A DNA stretch of 50,366 nucleotides from Candidatus Aquidulcis sp. GTDB taxonomy: Bacteria; Chloroflexota; Limnocylindria; Limnocylindrales; Limnocylindraceae. The number at the start of each line of letters is the position of its first letter. Position 1 is the stretch's first letter. Under the pieces are notes generated by a model. That model made no database searches and was not told the DNA's origin. It saw only the letters and a program-made list of their open reading frames with translations. Of this stretch, positions 12,898 to 37,831 are shown one piece after another. The stretch is taken from contig QWRK01000002.1 in NCBI GenBank assembly GCA_003670455.1, positions 1-50,366 on the forward strand, in the 5' to 3' direction. A program made the translations under genes and the position numbers.

Positions 12898-13171
12898 GGT
12901 CACCCCAGCGCGCGCCACACGTCATGCGGGATCAAACGACGCGCTTCCGGCAACCTTCGAGGCGACCGTTGCGGAACTCCGTTCCATCGTGGATGATCTC
13001 GAGACTCAGGATGCGGATCTCGAGGCTGCAGTCGGGCAGTACGAACGGGGCGTGACGCTCCAAAAGCACGCTGAGTCGCAGCTGCAGGCGGCACGTCTGC
13101 GAGTTGAAGAGTTGCTCCCTGATGGATCAACGGCACTAACTGATGACGAAGAGGAGGACGAGGATGCCTGA
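12884..13171 (+). CDS. xseB: exodeoxyribonuclease VII small subunit
   Basis: 95 aa. FEATVAELRSIVDDLE...LEAAVGQYERGVTLQKHAESQL is the typical XseB helix pair. Overlaps the xseA 3' end. Confidence 0.9.
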   Translation: MAKRKVTPARATRHAGSNDALPATFEATVAELRSIVDDLETQDADLEAAVGQYERGVTLQKHAESQLQAARLRVEELLPDGSTALTDDEEEDEDA

Positions 13172-15134
13172 CGAAGGAGTCGCACTGCGCGCTGTTGGCG
13201 CCGACTCGTTGCTTGCTCGCCTCGACGGCCCCGCCGGCCTCAAGGCGCTCTCCAGTGCAGAGCTCGACCAGATCGCAGAGCAGCTCCGGACCGCGATCAT
13301 CGCGACAACCGCCGTTACAGGTGGACACCTTGGACCGAGCCTCGGCGTTGTCGAGCTAACGGTTGCGCTTCATCGCGTAATGAACTCGCCGGTAGACCGC
13401 ATCGTCTTTGACACTGGACACCAGGCGTACCCACATAAGCTGCTGACGGGCCGCCTTGCGCGATTCGGTACGCTCCGCCAGCTCGGTGGCATCGGTGGCT
13501 TCCCGCGACGCACTGAATCACCGCACGACGTTTTTGACGGTGGGCATGCGGGCACCGGAATTTCAATCGGCCAAGGGCTGGCGCTGGCCCGCGATGTCCG
13601 CGGGAGCGACGAGAAGGTTGCTGTCGTCGTTGGCGACGCGGCGCTGATGAGCGGCCTCAGCCTTGAGGCACTCAACGATATTGGCGATCGCGGCACACCG
13701 CTGCTGATCGTGCTTAACGACAACGAGATGTCGATCTCGCCAACGGTCGGGGCGATCTCCACCTATCTCTCAAAGGTGAAGCTCTCGGGGCGTTGGCGCG
13801 AGAGCAAGAGCTGGTACGACCGCACCATCTCGCGCGTGCCGCTCGTTGGCACCCAACTTGCTGCATGGTCGAAGAGCTTGCGTCGCTCCGTCGTCTCCCT
13901 GGTGCAGGAGCCAGGGCGCCTCTTTGAAGACCTCGGCATCACCTATGTCGGCGTGCTTGATGGGCACAACCGAGCGCAACTTGAAGCGGCGTTCGCGAAG
14001 GCCTTCACCATGAACGGGCCCGTGATCGTGCATGTGCGCACGCAGAAGGGTCGCGGCTATCGCCCGGCTGAAGTCGATCCGATCACCTTCCACGGCGCAG
14101 CACTCCCCAAGGTTCCGGTTGGCGCTACCGATAGCTACGGCAAGGCGGGTGCTGATCCGATCGCGACGCCGGCCAAGGTGCCGAACTACACCTCCTTCTT
14201 CGCGGCCGAGGTGGTTGCCGCGGCTGCGACTGATCGACGCATTGTGGCCATTACGGCTGGAATGCCGACGGGAACTGGGCTCGACAAGTTCGCCACGGCC
14301 TATCCAGATCGCTTCTACGACGTTGGCATCGCCGAGCAGCACGCCGTTGCTGCCGCGACCGGTATCGCTATGGGTGGCGGTCGACCAGTCGTTGCGATCT
14401 ATTCAACATTCCTGCAGCGCGCGTGGGACCAGATCGTGCATGATGTCTGCCAGAACGATCAGCCAGTGCTCATTGGTGTTGACCGTGCCGGCCTGGTTGG
14501 CGAAGACGGGACCAGCCATCAGGGGATGTTCATGCTCACCGCCCAACGACAGATCCCACGACTCCTGATCGCTTCGCCGAAGGATGAGCAGCAGCTTCGC
14601 TCGTTGGTTCGCACCGCGCTGGCCCAGGATCATCCATTCGCCCTGCACTACCCACGCGACAGCGTGGTGGGCGTGCCAGAGGTAGCACCAACGATCCTCC
14701 CTGTTGGCGTTTCAGAGGTGTTGGAGGAGGGGAACCAGATCGCCATCTTCGCCTTTGGCCCAATCATTCAGCGAGTTGCCCCAATCGCCGCGCGTCTGCG
14801 CGCCGAGGGCATCTCTGTTGCACTGGTAAACGCCATCTGGGCGAGCCCTCTCGATCACACCACGGTGCGTCGCTACGGTGAGAGCGCTGACTTGATCGTG
14901 ACGGTTGAAGAGAGCGTTGAGGCTGGTGGCTTTGGTGGTGCGGTCGTGGAGTCGTTGGCGGCGCACGAGGCGGCCACTGGGCGACGTGTGAAGGCCTCCA
15001 TCGCCACGATCGGCATCCCCGCCGGCAGCTTTGTTGACCACGGCAGCGTCTCAGATCTCCGCACGCTGATCGGCCTCGACGAAGCTGGGATTGAGCGCCG
15101 CATCCGAGCCGCCTGGAGCGCACGCAACCAGTAA
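13164..15134 (+). CDS. dxs: 1-deoxy-D-xylulose-5-phosphate synthase
   Basis: GGHLGPSLGVVELTVALH, DTGHQAYPHKLLTGR, GHAGTGISIGQG, VVGDAALMSG, IAEQHAV. ATG 13164 overlaps the xseB end; the track start 13143 is an alternative. Confidence 0.95.
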   Translation: MPDEGVALRAVGADSLLARLDGPAGLKALSSAELDQIAEQLRTAIIATTAVTGGHLGPSLGVVELTVALHRVMNSPVDRIVFDTGHQAYPHKLLTGRLARFGTLRQLGGIGGFPRRTESPHDVFDGGHAGTGISIGQGLALARDVRGSDEKVAVVVGDAALMSGLSLEALNDIGDRGTPLLIVLNDNEMSISPTVGAISTYLSKVKLSGRWRESKSWYDRTISRVPLVGTQLAAWSKSLRRSVVSLVQEPGRLFEDLGITYVGVLDGHNRAQLEAAFAKAFTMNGPVIVHVRTQKGRGYRPAEVDPITFHGAALPKVPVGATDSYGKAGADPIATPAKVPNYTSFFAAEVVAAAATDRRIVAITAGMPTGTGLDKFATAYPDRFYDVGIAEQHAVAAATGIAMGGGRPVVAIYSTFLQRAWDQIVHDVCQNDQPVLIGVDRAGLVGEDGTSHQGMFMLTAQRQIPRLLIASPKDEQQLRSLVRTALAQDHPFALHYPRDSVVGVPEVAPTILPVGVSEVLEEGNQIAIFAFGPIIQRVAPIAARLRAEGISVALVNAIWASPLDHTTVRRYGESADLIVTVEESVEAGGFGGAVVESLAAHEAATGRRVKASIATIGIPAGSFVDHGSVSDLRTLIGLDEAGIERRIRAAWSARNQ

Positions 15135-22939: not shown

Positions 22940-22964
22940 GGTCGGGGTGGGCGATAATACCCAC

Positions 22965-23921
22965 ATGGGAAGTGTTGAGAACATCGTCATCGCGAAGCGC
23001 ACGGGCGTCTGCTATGGCGTCCGTGAGGCCATTGATAAGGCCAAGATCGCCCGCGCCTCTGGGAAAGAGACCCACACCCTGGGCCATGTCGTACACAACG
23101 AGGGGCTGATCGCCGACCTCCGCGCCCGTGGAATCAAGAATGTGGACCAACTTGATGAGGTCGCGTCGGGGACCGCCGTCGTTATTCGTGCGCATGGTGT
23201 GACCCCCGAGGTGCTCGGCCGCGCAGCAGAGCGTGGCCTCGAGGTGATTGATGGCACCTGCACCTGGGTGACGCAAGAGCATCGCGAGCTCGCTCGACTC
23301 GTGGAAGAGGGATACGAGATCGTTCTCCTCGGCACACCAAATCACCCGGAGGTCGTCGGCCTGCTTGGCTTTGCCCCAAATGCCATCTTGGTCGACGAAG
23401 AGGAGGATTGGGCAACCATTCCACGTCGTAAGCGCATGGCGCTGATCACGCAATCCACCCAACCGCCATGGAAGTTTGAGCGCCTGGCAGCCTTTCTTGT
23501 TTCCCGCTGTCATGAACTCAAGGTGATCAACACGGTCTGCCCAGTCACGATCCGACGCCAAGAGGACACGATTGCAATTGCCCGCGAGGTGCAGCTGATG
23601 ATCGTAGTGGGCGGCACCCGGAGCGCCAACACGAAGGAGCTCACCCGTCTCTGTGAGATTAGTGGCACGCGCGCCGTGCAGATTGAGTCTGCGCAGGCGC
23701 TAACCGATCCAGCCCTCTTTGCAAACATCCACACCGTTGGCATCACGGGTGGAACGAGCACTCCGATTGAGGACCTTGAGCGCGTTGCGCTGCAGATCGC
23801 TGAACTTGGCGGAACCGACCAGGTACGTGCCAATGCGGCATCCATTGCACGAGCCGCCCTGGAGGCTGCCGCTACGCCGCAATACCGCACCACCTCAATC
23901 ACCAGCGGTGCACCAGCATGA
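22965..23921 (+). CDS. ispH: 4-hydroxy-3-methylbut-2-enyl diphosphate reductase
   Basis: GVCYGVREAI, VVHNEGLI, TCTWVT, NTVCPVT (three Fe-S Cys contexts), SANTKEL. The track start 22947 is an alternative. Confidence 0.93.
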   Translation: MGSVENIVIAKRTGVCYGVREAIDKAKIARASGKETHTLGHVVHNEGLIADLRARGIKNVDQLDEVASGTAVVIRAHGVTPEVLGRAAERGLEVIDGTCTWVTQEHRELARLVEEGYEIVLLGTPNHPEVVGLLGFAPNAILVDEEEDWATIPRRKRMALITQSTQPPWKFERLAAFLVSRCHELKVINTVCPVTIRRQEDTIAIAREVQLMIVVGGTRSANTKELTRLCEISGTRAVQIESAQALTDPALFANIHTVGITGGTSTPIEDLERVALQIAELGGTDQVRANAASIARAALEAAATPQYRTTSITSGAPA

Positions 23922-25375: not shown

Positions 25376-26388
25376 GCACGATCCGCATTCTCGGCGCAGG
25401 TGCATGGGGAACCGCTTTGGCGCTCCTCTGGAGCCAGGAGCAGGGTGAGGGGCGCCCTGCTCCCGTCATCGAGCTGCTCGCTCGAACAACCGACGAGGCG
25501 GCGCTCCTGCGCAGCGCCCGCATCAACACGAGACGCCTCCCTGGCATCGCCCTGCCAGTGGCAATCAACATCTTCAGCGCCACCGATAAGCTCACTGCGC
25601 TGAGCGCCGATGACACCTTCGTGGTCACTATTCCCTCCACGGAGCTCGACCCAGACACAGCCAAGCAGATCGTGCAGTCCGCTGGAGGTGCGCCTATGGT
25701 CATCGCCTCCAAAGGGTTGTCGCTGAGCGGTGCACGGCCCTCGGAACTGCTGATCGCTGCAGGGGCAGATTCGGAGCGTCTCGCCGTCTTGTCTGGACCA
25801 AACCTCGCCAGCGAGATCGCCATGGGGAAGCCCGCAGCGGCCGTACTCGCCGGACCAGCCCATCTTGTTGAGTCCCTGCGTACACGGCTGGTACGCCCAA
25901 CCCTTCGGCTCTACCTGACCGACGACGTTGTCGGCGTTGAGATTAGCGGGGCGCTCAAGAACGTTATCGCCATCGCCGTCAGTGGTGTCCGTGCGCTCGG
26001 CTATGGCGAGAACGCTGCAGCGGCGCTCCTGTCGCGTGGCGTTGCCGAGATGGCGCGCCTCGCCGAGGCATGCGGTGGCCGCACAGAAACCGCTTGTGGG
26101 CTCGCTGGCGTTGGCGATCTTGTTGTCACCTCGTCAAACACCGGTTCACGCAATGCGAAACTTGGTGCACTCCTCGCGAGCGGCATGACTGTGCAGGCCG
26201 CTGTCGACAAGATTGGAGCAACGGTGGAGGGGATTGGCACCGCACAGGGCGCCCTGCAGCTTGCAGCTGCGCACAAACTAGAGATGCCGATTACCGCCGC
26301 GGTTGTAGCAGCGATCAGCGGAGGGGCGACCATTGAAGTGCTCGCGCGCGCGCTGCTCGGTCGCTCACCAGCGGGGGAGTGGCGCTAG
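25372..26388 (+). CDS. gpsA: NAD(P)H-dependent glycerol-3-phosphate dehydrogenase
   Basis: [16 protein letters not shown] Rossmann start, [10 protein letters not shown] and [10 protein letters not shown]. Confidence 0.93.
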
Positions 26389-26423
26389 GCTTCCTGATAC
26401 ACTGCCGAAACTTTGGACCCACT

Positions 26424-26500
26424 CGGGGCGTAGCGCAGCTTGGTAGCGCGCTTGCATGGGGTGCAAGAGGTCGCTGGTTCGAATCCAGTCGCCCCGACCA
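26424..26500 (+). tRNA. tRNA-Pro (anticodon GGG), CCA encoded
   Basis: Hand-folded cloverleaf. Acceptor CGGGGCG/CGCCCCG, D stem GCGC/GCGC, anticodon stem CTTGC/GCAAG with loop ATGGGGT, T arm GCTGG-TTCGAAT-CCAGT, then ACCA. Confidence 0.9.
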
Positions 26501-26516
26501 CATTTGTGAGCAATAG

Positions 26517-26546
26517 AAAAGGCCCGGGGTTTCCCCCGGGCCTTTT
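26517..26546. terminator. bidirectional intrinsic terminator (gpsA/tRNA-Pro from the left, rhodopsin from the right)
   Basis: AAAA-GGCCCGGGG-TTTC-CCCCGGGCC-TTTT. Perfect 9-bp GC stem with T-tracts on both strands, between convergent units. Confidence 0.85.
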
Positions 26547-26559
26547 CCTGTATCCGAGC

Positions 26560-26577
26560 CCGACGGTTTCCCGTCGG
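26560..26577 (-). terminator. second GC hairpin immediately after the rhodopsin stop
   Basis: CCGACGG-TTTC-CCGTCGG, 7-bp stem and the same TTTC loop as the main terminator. No T-tract of its own. Confidence 0.4.
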
Positions 26578-26584
26578 AAGGGGA

Positions 26585-27325
26585 TTACTTCGAAGAACCG
26601 TTCTTCAGGGTTGCGATCTTCCAGATGAGGAGACCGTAGCCCGGCTTGGCCAGGATGTCGGCAATCGTGTATCCGACCTGCTTCAGCACGAGGCCGTCCT
26701 GGGCCGTAAGGCCAAGGTTGCCTGCGATTGCTGGAAGAAGGTAGGCGATTGGGTAGACGCCCCACGTCGCAATAAGCACGACGCGAAGGATCTTGAAGAT
26801 CCCCTGGATGTCCTTGCTCTGCTTCTTGATCGAGGCATCGATGCCGCCGAACAGGTCGCGGAGGATCAGGACGAAGAAGACTGAGCTGATTGCGCCCCAG
26901 ATGGTGCGCGGTGAAGCCAAGTCAACCGACGTGATGTTCGTCATCTCGCCGACGTAGCCGGTTGCGATCATCAAGAACGCATAGACCACGTTTCGCTTGA
27001 TCAGCGTGCTCTCAAGCTTCTTGTCGAGCTTGAGTACGAGCACGAGCTCAGCAACGAGGAGCGGCACCGTCAGGAGCCAGTCCACGTATCGGTACGCCTC
27101 GTTGAACGGGGCGCCCGTGGTGCCGAAGGCGACCCACGAGTCGAAGATTCGGACGTAGTGGTAGAACGCGATCAGCACAACTACGGCTGAGAGCGTTACC
27201 GCCATCCGGTTCCCCTCCTTCAGAGCTCCGCGTGCGGAGACGAAGAAGAAGAAGCTTGCGCCCATCGCCGCAATGGCGAGGGACATGAAGTTGTAGACCA
27301 ACTGATAGGCATCTGCTGCGCTCAT
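26585..27325 (-). CDS. type-1 microbial rhodopsin, proteorhodopsin/xanthorhodopsin-like, predicted outward proton pump (DTE motif)
   Basis: 246 aa, 7 hydrophobic helices. AFYHY (PR His75 equivalent). RYVDWLLTVPLLVAE gives D82/T86/E93. GYVGE and YPIAY are present. YTIADILAKPGYG gives D223 and Schiff-base K227 (codon 26645-26647). ATG 27323-27325 is preceded by AAGGGAGAG. The 33 extra residues of the track ORF are Arg-rich and not protein-like. Confidence 0.92.
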   Translation of the reverse strand: MSAADAYQLVYNFMSLAIAAMGASFFFFVSARGALKEGNRMAVTLSAVVVLIAFYHYVRIFDSWVAFGTTGAPFNEAYRYVDWLLTVPLLVAELVLVLKLDKKLESTLIKRNVVYAFLMIATGYVGEMTNITSVDLASPRTIWGAISSVFFVLILRDLFGGIDASIKKQSKDIQGIFKILRVVLIATWGVYPIAYLLPAIAGNLGLTAQDGLVLKQVGYTIADILAKPGYGLLIWKIATLKNGSSK

Positions 27326-27376
27326 CAATGGCTCTCCCTTACTGCTTCTGCGACCTCTTCGGATCGCTGTGGATAA

Positions 27377-27445
27377 GTATCGCAAATTTCGGGGGCTATG
27401 TTGCGATACCGCAATATTTCGCAACTGTTACATCTTTCTGTAACA
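27377..27445. promoter_or_regulatory. AT-rich divergent promoter/operator region with multiple dyad repeats
   Basis: Between divergent starts 27325 (-) and 27507 (+). TATCGCAA (27378-27385) and TTGCGATA (27401-27408) form a perfect 8-bp inverted repeat. GTTGCGA (27400-27406) pairs with TCGCAAC (27419-27425). TGTTACA (27426-27432) pairs with TGTAACA (27439-27445). Direct repeats GTATCGCAAATTTC and GATACCGCAATATTTC lie about 30 bp apart. Confidence 0.6.
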
Positions 27446-27506
27446 AATGAGATTTTCCACGGGCCCGCGGGAGGCGCTAGTCTGCGAGGGAGGGAAAGGG
27501 GGAGCC

Positions 27507-27896
27507 ATGCCAGCCATCACAGAGCTCACGCGCATCGAGCCGGTCCACCTGGCACGCCTGGAGGCGCAGGGGATCTTCACCACAGGACTGCTGTTGGAGC
27601 GCACCGAAACCCCAACCCGCCGCCAGACCTTGGCGGACCAGACCGACGCCTCTACCGCCGACGTCGCCGAATGGCGCGACGAGGCCCTCCTGCTCAATCT
27701 CGCATTCTTGGGGCCCGCTGAACACGAGCTCCTGGCCCAGGCGGGATACGGCGGCGTTGAGACCCTCGCGGCAGCCCCATGGGAGCACTTCCAGTCCGGA
27801 GTGATCTCAACCGCACAGACACTTGGCCTCCCACTCCCTGACCCGCTCTCCCTCCGTTCGTGGTGGGAGCAGGGGCAGGTCCTCGCCGACGCGTGA
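27507..27896 (+). CDS. DUF4332-like protein (tandem helix-hairpin-helix-type repeats)
   Basis: 129 aa. ITELTRIEPVHLARLEAQGIFTTGLLLE...TLADQTDASTADVAEWRDEALLLNL...GPAEHELLAQAGYGGVETLAA follows the DUF4332 pattern as I remember it. GGGAAAGGGGGAG Shine-Dalgarno before ATG 27507. Confidence 0.6.
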   Translation: MPAITELTRIEPVHLARLEAQGIFTTGLLLERTETPTRRQTLADQTDASTADVAEWRDEALLLNLAFLGPAEHELLAQAGYGGVETLAAAPWEHFQSGVISTAQTLGLPLPDPLSLRSWWEQGQVLADA

Positions 27897-28522
27897 AGTC
27901 GCTCCGCCGCCTCTTGCGGCGGTCGCTCCTCGCCCTCGCCGCTGCGGCTCTGGCCATTGGCGCAACGACAGCCATCTTCCTTACGCCCCCAGTTGTGCAC
28001 TCCCTCTTGTCGGTGAGCGACGCCCATACGGTGCTCGGGGTGGAGCCGGGGGTAGCGGAGGGCCTCTCAGACGCCCTGGTGGGGGATCTCCTCACGGACG
28101 GGGCCTTTGATGCCCCGCTTGGTGACGAGCCACTCCTTTCGGCGGGAGAGCGCTCCCACCTTGCCGATGTTGGCGCGCTCCTCCGGGCCGTCCTGGTTGC
28201 TGGGCTTGGCGGGTTGATCGTCTTGGCCCTCGCCCGGGTGCGCCGCCGCGCCTGGTTGCGCGTGGCCATTCGCGACGGGGCAGCGCTCATCGTTGGTGGG
28301 GCACTGCTGGCCGCTGCCGCCTTCGCGCTGGCCTTCGATGCCACGTTCGCCTTCTTCCACGGGCTCTTCTTTGCTGCTGGCACGTGGACCTTCAATCCCG
28401 CCACAGATCGGCTCGTGCAGTTGTATCCGCAGGACTTCTGGGTTCTGGCGGCACTGCTCTTCTGCCTTGTACTCGCGTTGGGTTCATTCGTTTCGTATCG
28501 CATGACGGCACGCGCACGGTGA
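27893..28522 (+). CDS. TIGR01906/DUF1461 integral membrane protein (Lit, lipoprotein intramolecular transacylase-like)
   Basis: 209 aa, 4 predicted TM helices. ERSHLADVGALL matches the family E..H..DV..L block. FAFFHGLFFAAGTWTFNPATDRLVQLYPQDFW matches the FH..FF...W.F.P..D.L...P..F block. GTG 27893 overlaps the upstream stop as GTGA. Confidence 0.65.
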   Translation: MKSLRRLLRRSLLALAAAALAIGATTAIFLTPPVVHSLLSVSDAHTVLGVEPGVAEGLSDALVGDLLTDGAFDAPLGDEPLLSAGERSHLADVGALLRAVLVAGLGGLIVLALARVRRRAWLRVAIRDGAALIVGGALLAAAAFALAFDATFAFFHGLFFAAGTWTFNPATDRLVQLYPQDFWVLAALLFCLVLALGSFVSYRMTARAR

Positions 28523-30072
28523 TGGGCGCGATCTATCTCGCGGTCATCGGGCTTTCGGCGATCGGGGTGCACGGCCTGGTCAAACGTTTCTCTCTGCCAG
28601 TGTCGCGACAGGTGCTGTTACCCGTAACGGTCGTCACTACCGTGGCCTTCCTCCTTGTCGATGCGGTTGGCATCTGGCGCGGCTGGTTTGCAACGCCGCT
28701 CTCGTCAACGCTGCTGATGCTTCCTGGGCGGGGTGCCCTGGATGCAGGGCTACCCATTGAAGAGGTCGCGCTCCTTGCGGCGCTTGCAGCACTTGTTGTC
28801 GTGCTGATGAGCGCTGGGAAATCGCGCGAAGGGAGACGAGAGGGGGAACTCTCAGCGCGAAGAGCTGGAGCGGCAATCCTAATTGGGATCACTGTCGGTG
28901 CCGGGGCACTGGCTGCAAATGTTGGCGGCGAATACACTGCGGCAACGGCAGGGCTTGCGGCTGGGGCACTACTCCTCGCAGCGCCGCTCCTTGCTCGCAG
29001 CCAGGCAAGCCGTTGGAGCGTGGCAATCTTTCTCGGGCTGACGCTGGTGTTTGACAACATCATGTGTGCGGCGGAGCTCTTCTACTATTCCAGCGCGCCA
29101 CGTTCGGGGGTGATGCTGGGCTACGCGCCGGTCGAGGACATCCTCTGGGCAGCGGCCTTTGTGCTCTTTACGGTGCAGCTCACAGCATCAGCACGTGTAG
29201 CGAAGGGTCGCTGGTGGCGGTTGCTGCTGGCCTCTCGCCCAGTTTCGTGGATCAACACCGCGCTCCCATTTGCGGGAGGTGCGCTCGCAGCCGGAGCGGG
29301 GGAGGCGGTTGGCGCATGGTTCTTGCCGCTCGTGATCTGGTGGGGCGTCGCCTACAACTTGTACCTCTATGGAATCAACGATCTCTATGACCTTGCAACT
29401 GATCGAAAGAATCCGCGGAAGGGTGGTGCTGAGGGTGCGCTACTCCAGAACAGTGATCTACCAACGCTGCGACTGCTTCTTCTTTTCGCTGCGTTCACGG
29501 GTGCGCTCTTCCTACTGACGGGCACCGCTACGGTTCCAATGTGGTGCCTACTCGGTATCGCCTTTGCCACGGCATACAGCGCACCCTGGTTCGTCCGCGC
29601 TCGCGCTGTGCCGATCTTGGATGCGGTCATCTCCGCGACGCACTTTGTGATCCCTGCAGTTGCCGGCCTTGCGCTCGGCGGCGAGCTGCAACAGGCCTGG
29701 ATTGCGCCGCTGGCGGCGTTCTTCTTCTGGAACATGGGAAGCCATGTGGTGGGAGCGCTGCAAGATGTTGATGCAGATCGGCGGAGCCGGATCGCTACGG
29801 TTGGCACACTTCTTGGCGTTCGCGGCGGGGGGTTGTTCGCCATCGCACTCTACGCCGTGGCGGGGCTCTTGCTGCTCGTGCAAGGCGAACCACTCCAGCG
29901 CATTGGGGCGCTCTTGCCGCTCGCGAGCATCCTCTCGCTGCTCCCGCTAATCGCAGGTCGACCAACGCATCAGGCGGCACGCGCCGCATGGCGCCGATTC
30001 ATGCTGCTGAACCTCTTCCTTGGCGCTGGGGCCGCGATGCTGATCATTCGCAGCCTCGTTGGCGCCGCGTAG
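28522..30072 (+). CDS. fusion protein: two lycopene-cyclase half-domains (CrtYe/CrtYf- or CrtYc/Yd-like) plus a CrtEb-type lycopene elongase (UbiA superfamily)
   Basis: 516 aa from ATG 28522 (TGATG overlap). Half-domain 1 has VDAVGIWRGW...LPIEE (28753-28764). Half-domain 2 has LVFDNIMCAAELFYY...APVED (29128-29139). From about 29233 the sequence is SRPVSWINTALPF, YGINDLYDLATDRKNPRKGGAEGALL (from 29377), YSAP...PILDAVISATHFVIPA and GALQDVDADRRSRIATVG (from 29761). These track the C. glutamicum CrtEb sequence blocks from memory. Confidence 0.8.
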   Translation: MGAIYLAVIGLSAIGVHGLVKRFSLPVSRQVLLPVTVVTTVAFLLVDAVGIWRGWFATPLSSTLLMLPGRGALDAGLPIEEVALLAALAALVVVLMSAGKSREGRREGELSARRAGAAILIGITVGAGALAANVGGEYTAATAGLAAGALLLAAPLLARSQASRWSVAIFLGLTLVFDNIMCAAELFYYSSAPRSGVMLGYAPVEDILWAAAFVLFTVQLTASARVAKGRWWRLLLASRPVSWINTALPFAGGALAAGAGEAVGAWFLPLVIWWGVAYNLYLYGINDLYDLATDRKNPRKGGAEGALLQNSDLPTLRLLLLFAAFTGALFLLTGTATVPMWCLLGIAFATAYSAPWFVRARAVPILDAVISATHFVIPAVAGLALGGELQQAWIAPLAAFFFWNMGSHVVGALQDVDADRRSRIATVGTLLGVRGGGLFAIALYAVAGLLLLVQGEPLQRIGALLPLASILSLLPLIAGRPTHQAARAAWRRFMLLNLFLGAGAAMLIIRSLVGAA

Positions 30073-30087
30073 CAGTAGTATGCGCAG

Positions 30088-30570
30088 ATGAGTGATACGC
30101 CGCGATCGATTCTGGTGCTGACGGTCAGCGATTCGATCCATGCTGGCGAGCGAGAAGATAAGGCGGGCACCCTTGCCGCAGCGGCCCTTGTCGCGCACGG
30201 TTGGGAGGTGCAGCGAGCGCAGGCCCCCGACGAGCTCGATGCCATTCGTGCAGCCCTCGAGCAGCACATCGGCACCGTCGATGTCATCTTGACCGCTGGC
30301 GGAACGGGGCTCAGCTCACGCGATGTCACCCCGGACGCAACCGCCCCGCTCTTGGAGCGGCTGATTCCAGGGATCCCTGACGCCATTCGTATGCTGGGAC
30401 GCTCCCAGACCCCTGCGGCGATCCTTTCGCGCGGCGTCGCGGGTGTGGCGAAGGGGACCCTCATCGTCAACCTCCCCGGCGGCAGTGGTGCAGTGCGTGA
30501 CGGGCTGGCCATCCTGCTCCCCGTGCTTGAGCACGCCAGCGACGCGATCGGAGAGCGCGACCGCTCGTAG
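30088..30570 (+). CDS. MogA/MoaB family molybdopterin-biosynthesis protein
   Basis: 160 aa. LTVSDS...EDKAG, ILTAGGTGLSSRDVTPDAT, LSRGVAGV...LIVNLPGG. Confidence 0.85.
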   Translation: MSDTPRSILVLTVSDSIHAGEREDKAGTLAAAALVAHGWEVQRAQAPDELDAIRAALEQHIGTVDVILTAGGTGLSSRDVTPDATAPLLERLIPGIPDAIRMLGRSQTPAAILSRGVAGVAKGTLIVNLPGGSGAVRDGLAILLPVLEHASDAIGERDRS

Positions 30571-30676
30571 CCCTCGTAGTCGTGCCTTCGCACACAAGAT
30601 CGTGTGTAGACTCTCCCCGAGACCGCAACCTGCGGTGGCCCCGCGCGCCGCGGTGCAAAGGTGAGGAGGAGCGAGG

Positions 30677-31180
30677 GTGCGTTGCCCATCGTGCAAGGAG
30701 CCAGATACGCGCGTCGTCGATTCGCGCGACCTTGATGACGGCTCCGTCATTCGTCGCCGTCGCGCCTGCCGCATTTGCGGCACACGCGTGACCACCTACG
30801 AGCGCGCCGAACTCGCCAAGCTTTACGTCATTAAGCGCTCCGGCGAACGGCAGGAGTACGACTCCCAGAAACTCCTTGAGGGGTTACGCCGCGCGCTGAC
30901 CCGTCGCCCCGTGCCCGTTGATGCCCCGGAGCGCGCCGTTGAGGCGATCGAGGCACAGATTCGGGCCAGTGGCGCAACAGAGCTCTCCTCTGCGCGCATC
31001 GGCGCGTTAACGATGGCGGCGCTTCGCGAGATTGATCAGATCGCCTATATCCGCTTCGCGAGCGTTTACCAGTCGTTTGAAGACCTCGAGACGCTCAAGC
31101 GGGAAGTAGATGAGCTGCTTACCGAGAAGAGCGCGGGGAAGGGGAAGCGTCGCATTCGTGCCGTGGAGGCCGAGGCATGA
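30677..31180 (+). CDS. nrdR: transcriptional repressor NrdR
   Basis: MRCPSCKEPDTRVVDSR...RRRRACRICGTRVTTYE zinc ribbon plus an ATP-cone. GTG start after GGTGAGGAGGAG. Confidence 0.95.
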   Translation: MRCPSCKEPDTRVVDSRDLDDGSVIRRRRACRICGTRVTTYERAELAKLYVIKRSGERQEYDSQKLLEGLRRALTRRPVPVDAPERAVEAIEAQIRASGATELSSARIGALTMAALREIDQIAYIRFASVYQSFEDLETLKREVDELLTEKSAGKGKRRIRAVEAEA

Positions 31181-34186: not shown

Positions 34187-34262
34187 GCCCCTGTAGCTCA
34201 GTGGATAGAGCGCCGCCGTCCTAAGGCGGGCGTCGTCGGTTCGATTCCGGCCGGGGGCACCA
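34187..34262 (+). tRNA. tRNA-Arg (anticodon CCT), CCA encoded
   Basis: Hand-folded. Acceptor GCCCCTG/CGGGGGC (one G-T pair), D stem GCTC/GAGC, anticodon stem CCGCC/GGCGG with loop GTCCTAA, T arm GTCGG-TTCGATT-CCGGC, then ACCA. Confidence 0.85.
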
Positions 34263-37754: not shown

Positions 37755-37831
37755 GGGCGGTTAGCTCAGTTGGTTAGAGCGCAGCCTTGACATGGCTGAG
37801 GTCACAGGTTCGAGTCCTGTACCGCCCACCA
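37755..37831 (+). tRNA. tRNA-Val (anticodon GAC), CCA encoded
   Basis: Hand-folded. Acceptor GGGCGGT/ACCGCCC, D stem GCTC/GAGC, anticodon stem CAGCC/GGCTG with loop TTGACAT, T arm ACAGG-TTCGAGT-CCTGT, then ACCA. Confidence 0.9.

Follow-up and report, generated by a model that had tools for sequence, protein, structure and literature searches.

In a 50,366-nucleotide stretch of DNA from Candidatus Aquidulcis sp. (contig QWRK01000002.1; the whole stretch is called the window below), a gene at 28522..30072 on the forward strand encodes a protein of 516 amino acids (aa), followed by a stop codon, in which a CrtYe-like cyclase half, a linker helix, a CrtYf-like cyclase half and a CrtEb-like elongase succeed one another. 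We read this protein, with a probability of about 0.7, as one membrane polypeptide that joins CrtYe, CrtYf and CrtEb covalently and would convert lycopene to a cyclic C50 carotenoid. This agrees with the interpretation reached in a first-pass annotation of the same DNA, which the comparisons below support at the level of homology; all of the checks proposed there that are feasible in silico favored it. The component enzymes are known, as the functions of CrtEb, CrtYe/CrtYf, CrtYg/CrtYh and LbtA/LbtBC have been described (PMC6393565, PMC6669644, PMC2889829); what is new is the domain architecture, in an unexpected phylum. In the searchable literature we came upon no account of a three-part fusion, in line with the remark in the first-pass annotation that no characterized example was known. 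To our knowledge, nearly all descriptions of C50 carotenoid synthesis come from Actinomycetota and haloarchaea, where several genes encode the pathway. Candidatus Limnocylindria, to which the window belongs, is an abundant, uncultured freshwater lineage of Chloroflexota.

The uninterrupted open reading frame (ORF) of 516 aa that had been proposed at 28522-30072 on the forward strand is confirmed. GTG 28384 would give the longest ORF in this frame; the start is placed at ATG 28522, because all of the approximately 50 full-length homologues (512-520 aa) begin at that position. The gene upstream ends in a TGA that overlaps this ATG, an overlap of the kind found in translationally coupled units. 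Each cyclase half had been credited with a Pro-x-Glu-Glu/Asp signature, and both signatures are present, P78-I-E-E81 at nt 28753-28764 and P203-V-E-D206 at nt 29128-29139; the coordinates span these four residues, not the five that had been spelled out.

Half-domain 1 (residues 1-98; 28522..28815, forward strand) comprises three predicted transmembrane helices and carries D47, R53-G-W-F56 and P78-I-E-E81, and corresponds to the CrtYe/LbtA-type first subunit of C50 cyclases. Half-domain 2 (residues 136-228; 28927..29205, forward strand) carries E137-Y138, FDN at residues 177-179 and P203-V-E-D206, and corresponds to the CrtYf/LbtB-type second subunit; the FDN..AA.LF.Y block ascribed to it is found as FDN..C/AA..LF.Y at residues 177-189. 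Against a profile of 57 actinobacterial genes picked solely by their position upstream of a second subunit, half 1 aligns over 93 columns with a probability of 97% and an E-value of 1.2e-10 in hhalign. This position-only choice replaced a circular hhalign test, in which the subunits had been picked by the half-1 hidden Markov model (HMM). Half 2 matches the second subunits with a probability of 99.4% (E 2.3e-21), whereas the cross-comparisons, i.e., half 1 with second subunits and half 2 with first subunits, are weak (E 0.07 and 0.005-0.011). By these profile matches, which bear out the two N-terminal lycopene-cyclase half-domains of the first-pass annotation, half 1 is the homologue of the first subunit and half 2 that of the second, not the reverse. 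Pairwise searches are less sensitive: BLASTP aligns half 2 with a CrtYf-like protein of Glutamicibacter at 45% identity over 55 aa (E 7e-12), and half 1 with the Glutamicibacter first subunit only over a 29-aa match around PxEE (E 0.008), so that profiles were needed. The two halves resemble each other weakly and in register (hhalign E 0.017), an internal repeat that alone would not prove the fold.

Gene order outside Limnocylindria follows the same succession. When HMMs of half 1, half 2 and the C-terminal domain were run on the forward strand of 84 fetched loci, the half-1 HMM matched, in most actinobacterial loci, the small gene immediately 5' of the half-2 match, which is itself followed by CrtEb. 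The colinear order half 1, half 2, CrtEb is also found in 66 non-Limnocylindria genome loci, and CrtEb lies immediately downstream of the cyclase relatives in 29 of the 29 metagenome loci retrieved by the cyclase profile on its own. A two-domain cyclase linked to crtI and crtB (L089), which has no adjacent elongase, matches half 2 alone. Because CrtEb lies downstream in both genome and metagenome relatives, the nearest relatives of the cyclase part are elongase-linked (C50) cyclases, which supports a predicted cyclase module of C50 type rather than C40 type.

The C-terminal part (residues 229-516; 29206..30069, forward strand) is a predicted CrtEb-type lycopene elongase domain of the UbiA fold. 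Pfam UbiA matches residues 248-497 with 61.7 bits (gathering threshold, 34.2) and E 9e-17, and a Foldseek search with an AlphaFold2 model gives the UbiA homologues 4tq4/4od4 as top matches over the C-terminal part (E 1e-5). Among NCBIfam models NF009608 (PRK13105) is the best by approximately 100 bits, with 218.1 bits at a cutoff of 217; PRK13595 and PRK12875 reach 114 and 108 bits, and the quinone, haem, chlorophyll and menaquinone prenyltransferase models (ubiA, chlG, mqnP) at most 33 bits. The earlier assignment of this domain to the CrtEb type, rather than to the quinone or haem prenyltransferases, thus stands. The sequence blocks on which that assignment had been based are all present: SRPVSWINTALPF (residues 238-250), the Asp-rich/NPRKGG block YGINDLYDLATDRKNPRKGG (NDLYDLATDRKNPRKGG; N286-G302, nt 29377-29427, with NPRKGG at residues 297-302), THFVIPA, and GALQDVDAD (Q414-D419, nt 29761-29778). 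Identity to stand-alone actinobacterial CrtEb is 41-42%, and 42 columns are invariant between the fusions, seven of these stand-alone proteins and two other fusions. The invariant columns take in both Asp-rich motifs as well as the family-specific NPRKGG, YSAP and HF..P, and the fusions contain every one of the CrtEb family blocks SRPxSWxNTxxPF, NDxxDxxSDxxNPRKGG, YSAPxxRxxxxPxxDSxxSxxHF and GAxQDxxxD.

Conservation among the Limnocylindria homologues, which are 45-98% identical, centers on the same residues. In the cyclase module D47, R53-G-W-F56, P78/E80/E81, F177/D178 and P203/E205/D206 are invariant, and in the elongase N286/D287/D290/D294, N297-G302 and Q414/D415/D419, so that neither Asp-rich motif (N286-D287-x2-D290-x3-D294 and D415-x-D417-x-D419) varies. 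For close pairs, with the synonymous rate near saturation, the ratio of nonsynonymous to synonymous substitution rates (dN/dS) is 0.06-0.09 (about 0.07) for half 1, half 2 and the elongase alike, and 0.09-0.10 for the whole gene. Judged by these ratios, all three modules are under purifying selection and none looks degenerate.

The two cyclase halves are joined by a linker (residues 99-135; 28816..28926, forward strand), in which a basic stretch, KSREGRREGELSARR (residues 99-113), is followed by an extra hydrophobic helix, placed at residues 116-134 by hydropathy and at 112-131 by AlphaFold2. Hydropathy and model agree on a layout of 3+1+3 = 7 helices for the cyclase module (half 1 at 2-20, 31-49 and 78-96; half 2 at 140-158, 167-185 and 204-224), followed by the multi-helix UbiA domain; the full-length AlphaFold2 model has a mean predicted local distance difference test score of 85 and a predicted template modeling score of 0.87. 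The linker is the least conserved part of the protein, with 27-59% identity where the halves have 58-92%, is hydrophobic in all members, and can be aligned with its counterpart in two-domain cyclases that are fused but stand alone. Hydropathy suggests that the linker helix crosses the membrane; in that case the two cyclase halves would be oriented alike, which would also bear on how separate cyclase subunits pair. A search of the Protein Data Bank returned no cyclase or CrtEb structure, the only sequence match being to chlorophyll synthase and the only fold matches to UbiA homologues; we know of no structure for this family of C50 cyclase and elongase enzymes.

By analogy with the characterized enzymes, the UbiA-type domain would bind dimethylallyl diphosphate (DMAPP) via Mg2+ and the two Asp-rich motifs, and would add hydroxylated C5 units at C-2 and C-2' of lycopene, to give a C45 intermediate and then the acyclic C50 flavuxanthin. 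The pseudo-heterodimeric cyclase module would then protonate and cyclize the elongated ends. The predicted product is a cyclic C50 carotenoid comparable to decaprenoxanthin, sarcinaxanthin or C.p.450, three compounds of formula C50H72O2 and about 704.6 Da; its type of ring (epsilon-, gamma- or beta-) is not predictable from sequence (PMC6669644). The fusion would fix the stoichiometry of the three modules at 1:1:1 and bring the elongase and cyclase sites into one membrane unit.

The closest architectural parallel is the Dietzia sp. CQ4 pair LbtA and LbtBC, which make C.p.450. The Limnocylindria protein has the same LbtB-elongase junction, the same modules in the same order and the same motifs, and the spacing between second subunit and elongase is approximately 18 aa, compared with 21-60 aa in 26 two-part fusions from other genomes. 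However, in Dietzia the first subunit is a separate gene in another frame, whereas here it is joined via the extra linker helix; a crtE-B-I cluster surrounds the Dietzia gene, whereas a rhodopsin gene adjoins the Limnocylindria gene, and the elongases are only approximately 35-40% identical. The protein is therefore not of the LbtBC type, since its first subunit is fused as well, but an extension of that type. The three modules are likewise homologous to CrtYe/CrtYf/CrtEb of Corynebacterium glutamicum (decaprenoxanthin) and CrtYg/CrtYh/CrtE2 of Micrococcus luteus (sarcinaxanthin), and the domains of the fusion follow one another as the genes do in Corynebacterium and in the loci examined: first subunit, second subunit, elongase. 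Those trios are three separate, overlapping genes in a MarR-regulated crtE-B-I operon, in contrast to one polypeptide with no crtEBI nearby. The two-domain cyclases, i.e., CrtYcd of Sulfolobus, haloarchaea and Bacteroidetes and the R domain of fungal CrtYB/CarRP, share with the fusion two Lycopene_cyc halves and a linker helix, but they are C40 cyclases that have no elongase or are fused to phytoene synthase, and their first half, unlike that of the fusion, is recognized by Pfam. The fusion is thus no stand-alone C40 CrtYcd: it shares the two-domain layout but has an elongase attached, and it lacks the crtE/B/I context.

The three-part form is narrowly distributed. A search of 5.8 billion proteins yielded full-length fusions, approximately 50 in number and 45-98% identical, out of assemblies from ENA, JGI, NCBI and Logan; one of them is named Candidatus Limnocylindrus. 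When 185,579 species, each represented by one genome, were scanned, full-length matches occurred only in 15 metagenome-assembled genomes (MAGs) of Candidatus Limnocylindria, labeled Limnocylindrus, Aquidulcis or Chloroflexota, with one apparently mislabeled Thermoflexus. When the cyclase profile was run exhaustively by HMMER against 1.84 billion protein representatives, only three full-length fusion clusters and fragments came back; the remaining matches fell into four kinds, namely single subunits (approximately 100 aa), two-domain cyclases (216-268 aa), a two-part fusion (422 aa) and a cyclase-oxidase fusion (737 aa), the last two with one case each. In these searches the cyclase-cyclase-UbiA architecture is confined to a single class of Chloroflexota, Candidatus Limnocylindria. 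We note separately that the organism name of the mislabeled entry (CAMAXG010000001.1, deposited as 'Thermoflexus hugenholtzii JAD2 isolate MH-08apr19-222') looks wrong: its fusion is 98% identical, its synteny is identical, and its content matches the Candidatus Limnocylindria MAGs.

Partial fusions are more widespread. In the 66 non-Limnocylindria genome loci the genes are separate in 40, and the remaining 26 keep second subunit and elongase in a single stop-free frame (L021-L024, L026-L028, L030, L031, L034, L035, L040-L043, L045, L046, L048-L051, L054, L065, L069, L076 and L082); in all 26 the first subunit is a separate gene in another reading frame. The hosts include Paenarthrobacter, Kocuria, Leucobacter, Dietzia (the LbtBC orthologue of Dietzia aurantiaca was recovered as L051) and a Sphaerobacteraceae MAG. 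The LbtBC-type fusion, called unique to Dietzia in a 2019 paper (PMC6393565), is therefore widespread and common in Actinomycetota. The first-pass annotation had stated, correctly, that Corynebacterium and Micrococcus use three separate genes and that Dietzia fuses only one cyclase subunit to the elongase (PMC6393565; loci L060 and L051), but the latter arrangement is not peculiar to Dietzia. Other combinations also occur. P0083 (L087:4909-5715) is a 268-aa fusion of both cyclase subunits that adjoins a separate 300-aa CrtEb in an idi-crtE-crtB-crtI cluster, and P0219 (737 aa) joins a two-domain cyclase to an amine-oxidase (CrtI/CrtD-like) domain. Fusions of CrtEb to a GT2 glycosyltransferase, 712-717 aa long, are found in other Chloroflexota or Dormibacterota-like lineages (P0071 and L090-L094; L090:4248-6401), and a 566-aa protein (P0072; L085:8001-9701) consists of CrtEb with a C-terminal extension. 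Both kinds of gene sit in Ye-Yf-Eb-crtI(-crtB) clusters, which, for the glycosyltransferase fusions, suggests glycosylated C50 carotenoids. P0083/L087, P0071 and L090-L094 belong to the same pathway family as the Limnocylindria fusion, but they never unite the three modules, and a rhodopsin gene adjoins none of them. In sum, C50 pathway genes fuse repeatedly, and the three-part form is the most complete state.

The constant neighbor of the fusion is a gene for a xanthorhodopsin-family proton pump at 26585..27325 on the reverse strand (Pfam Bac_rhodopsin, E 1e-40), divergent from the fusion, as the first-pass annotation had mentioned in passing, with two small genes between. The mechanically called ORF (26585-27424, reverse strand; 279 aa) starts at TTG 27424, but the homologues have 246 aa, the length obtained from ATG 27325 (MSAADAYQ...), which is the likely start and leaves a divergent intergenic region of approximately 120 bp before the next gene. 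The best matches in the Protein Data Bank are psXR, Salinibacter xanthorhodopsin (XR; 3ddl), Gloeobacter rhodopsin (6nwd) and Kin4B8 (E 1e-48 to 1e-56). The DTE proton-pump motif, D-x3-T-x6-E, lies in RYVDWLLTVPLLVAE, and the Schiff-base lysine in ADILAKPG. Gly144 aligns with Gly156 of Salinibacter XR, the site of Trp138 in bacteriorhodopsin, and glycine at the XR site opens a window for a carotenoid (PMC8113403). By these alignments the neighboring gene belongs to the xanthorhodopsin family and has the glycine of a putative carotenoid window.

Upstream of the fusion, in divergent orientation, the rhodopsin gene is present in 15 of 15 genomic loci with upstream sequence and in 37 of 37 metagenome contigs with enough of it; 14 further contigs, too short upstream, were left out of the count. 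In three loci of divergent lineages (L016-L018) the two intervening genes are absent and rhodopsin and fusion are still back to back; in L018, the only one of the three scanned in full, every other neighbor is different. The pair is thus a conserved unit, and nothing else at the locus is conserved as well as it. Between lineages the rhodopsin varies much less (78-100% identity) than the fusion protein does (45-98%). No rhodopsin gene was found within 6 kb of crtEb in any actinobacterial locus examined, Rhodoluna included. Because the two genes are always divergently paired, the expression and the product of the fusion are probably tied to the rhodopsin, for which the pigment may serve as antenna, chromophore precursor or photoprotectant. 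A link between rhodopsin and carotenoid genes, with rhodopsins of the same XR family, is also seen in the proteorhodopsin/xanthorhodopsin-crtEIBY-blh clusters; those link crtY and blh, whereas here the partner is an elongase-cyclase fusion, and no retinal-forming dioxygenase turned up nearby, although no search aimed at blh was made. Xanthorhodopsin-like and carotenoid genes have been reported in these Chloroflexota by Mehrshad et al., without the fusion (PMC6169038).

A stronger proposal, which we offer tentatively as a possibility well short of an even chance, is that the fusion and the xanthorhodopsin form a dedicated two-gene photosystem module, in which the cyclic C50 carotenoid would be a cofactor of the rhodopsin, either as a new kind of light-harvesting antenna at the Gly-opened window or as the entry to a blh-independent route to retinal. 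Bearing on it are the pairing in 52 of 52 informative loci, in lineages with otherwise entirely different neighbors, the lack of such pairing at actinobacterial crtEb loci, and the absence of crtEIB nearby, where no blh turned up either, although no search aimed at it was made. Many rhodopsin-bearing freshwater bacteria have no blh (PMC7734400; see also PMC12422013), and Aurantimicrobium, which has crtYe/Yf/Eb and no blh, still makes retinal, for which a route through cyclic C50 carotenoids has been hypothesized (PMC7734400).

Several observations weigh against the reading of the fusion as a complete C50 elongase-cyclase. With respect to the cyclase module, half 2 matches the lycopene-cyclase models just below their cutoffs (Pfam Lycopene_cyc, PF18916, 24.4 bits for a gathering threshold of 27; TIGR03462, 31.7 bits for a cutoff of 39.4), although several homologues do pass, PF18916 being listed for about one third of the full-length homologues and reaching 29.2 in that of L018. 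Half 1, which matches the first subunit over its full length by profile, has no match to curated Pfam or NCBIfam models. The same is true of the genuine first subunits in L001, L085 and L090 and of P0129, P0136 and P0205; the curated models therefore do not cover the CrtYe/LbtA-type first subunit. The N-terminal 232 aa, moreover, align end to end with stand-alone two-domain cyclases (212 columns, probability 99.5%), some of which have two strong Pfam Lycopene_cyc matches, and a preference for C50 over C40 substrates is not readable from sequence with certainty. The module might therefore be mainly a C40 lycopene beta-cyclase of the CrtYcd kind, which would make beta-carotene for the retinal of the neighboring rhodopsin while the elongase diverts part of the flux; in haloarchaea the flux branches in this way between CrtY and LyeJ. 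Clusters of rhodopsin genes with a lycopene cyclase that serves retinal supply are classical, no carotenoid gene other than the fusion adjoins this rhodopsin, and a title cited in PMC7734400 ascribes diverse, multiple catalytic functions to C50 cyclases. Yet each half is orthologous to a subunit encoded beside crtEb, CrtEb lies downstream of all 29 cyclase relatives, and the elongase, whose catalytic motifs are all retained, is the best conserved of the modules. No blh turned up in the window or near any fusion locus, although no search aimed at blh was made. We consider the C40 alternative unlikely.

As for the elongase, its 218 bits on NF009608 contrast with 415-436 bits for the CrtEb-type domains of Corynebacterium sp., Dietzia aurantiaca, Kocuria sp. 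and Glutamicibacter (the last from a MarR-crtE-crtB-crtI-Ye-Yf-Eb cluster), and a 47%-identical fusion homologue, P0053, falls below the cutoff with 200.9 bits. In a distance tree (neighbor-joining, midpoint-rooted, without support values, and used solely for this point) the fusions form one clade of their own. On these scores the domain is a divergent sister group, not a core member, of the NF009608 family. In addition, crtE, crtB and crtI queries taken from four loci had no tblastn match in the window or in 18 fusion loci, and a search with CrtB homologues for the lycopene genes of Limnocylindrus returned proteins of Dormibacterota-like and other Chloroflexota, including the lineage with the CrtEb-glycosyltransferase fusion; a supply of lycopene in the fusion-bearing genomes is therefore presumptive. 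The marginal family score and the separate clade, along with the missing crt neighbors, would suit a UbiA domain that prenylates a quinone, a lipid or another carotenoid end group and merely descends from CrtEb. That domain, however, is physically fused to carotenoid cyclase halves, shares the 42 invariant columns, NPRKGG, YSAP and HF..P included, with actinobacterial CrtEb, and scores far lower on every competing prenyltransferase model, which leaves this explanation more doubtful still than the C40 one. An artefact of assembly or frameshift, or a decaying fusion with one dead module, could be imagined since the window is one sequence of unknown read support, but it is effectively refuted: the same ORF of 512-520 aa is kept across independent assemblies, in approximately 50 protein clusters from four sources, 15 GTDB species genomes and 48 metagenome contigs, and each module has invariant catalytic residues and a low dN/dS.

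The order of genes around the fusion is gpsA, tRNA-Pro, rhodopsin (reverse strand), a DUF4332 gene, a Lit/TIGR01906-like gene, the fusion and moaB. The DUF4332 gene (27447..27896, forward strand; Pfam DUF4332, E 1e-11) is the first of the forward-strand unit that ends with the fusion, and the Lit/TIGR01906-like membrane protein gene (27860..28522, forward strand; Pfam Lit, E 3e-17, and TIGR01906, E 3e-18, below or near the cutoffs) has a stop that overlaps the fusion start. Both were considered as core partners and rejected, since they are present in most lineages but missing from L016-L018. A tRNA-Pro(GGG) lies at 26424-26500 on the forward strand between gpsA and the rhodopsin gene, and the 126-aa ORF at 26385..26765 (reverse strand), which overlaps it, is spurious; further tRNA genes are tRNA-Arg(CCT) at 34187-34262 and tRNA-Val(GAC) at 37755-37831. 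A scan of 26400-30800 for promoters and terminators gave nothing above shuffled background. The gene moaB follows 15 nt after the fusion (window 30072-30088); in the Candidatus Limnocylindrus lineage with 47% identity, moeA and moaC separate the two (L002:11548-13392). These molybdenum-cofactor genes share the forward-strand unit with the fusion without an obvious functional link. Two genes of the methylerythritol phosphate pathway, which supplies isoprenoid precursors including the DMAPP needed by the elongase, also lie in the window on the forward strand, dxs at 13143-15134 and ispH/lytB at 22947-23921; they belong to a conserved housekeeping stretch, not to a pigment cluster, and the rest of the window consists of housekeeping genes.

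Elongation and cyclization thus appear to be packed into one protein, which would be the most compact natural form of the C50 pathway and a ready-made part for the engineering of cyclic C50 pigments. Because the fusion is strictly paired with a xanthorhodopsin, two genes would allow a direct test of how C50 carotenoid and rhodopsin are related. The pairing also bears on the role of C50 genes, as a source of antenna, retinal precursor or photoprotection, in rhodopsin-bearing freshwater bacteria without the known gene for retinal formation. The invariance of this pairing is suggestive, though no proof, of a pigment that acts jointly with the rhodopsin.

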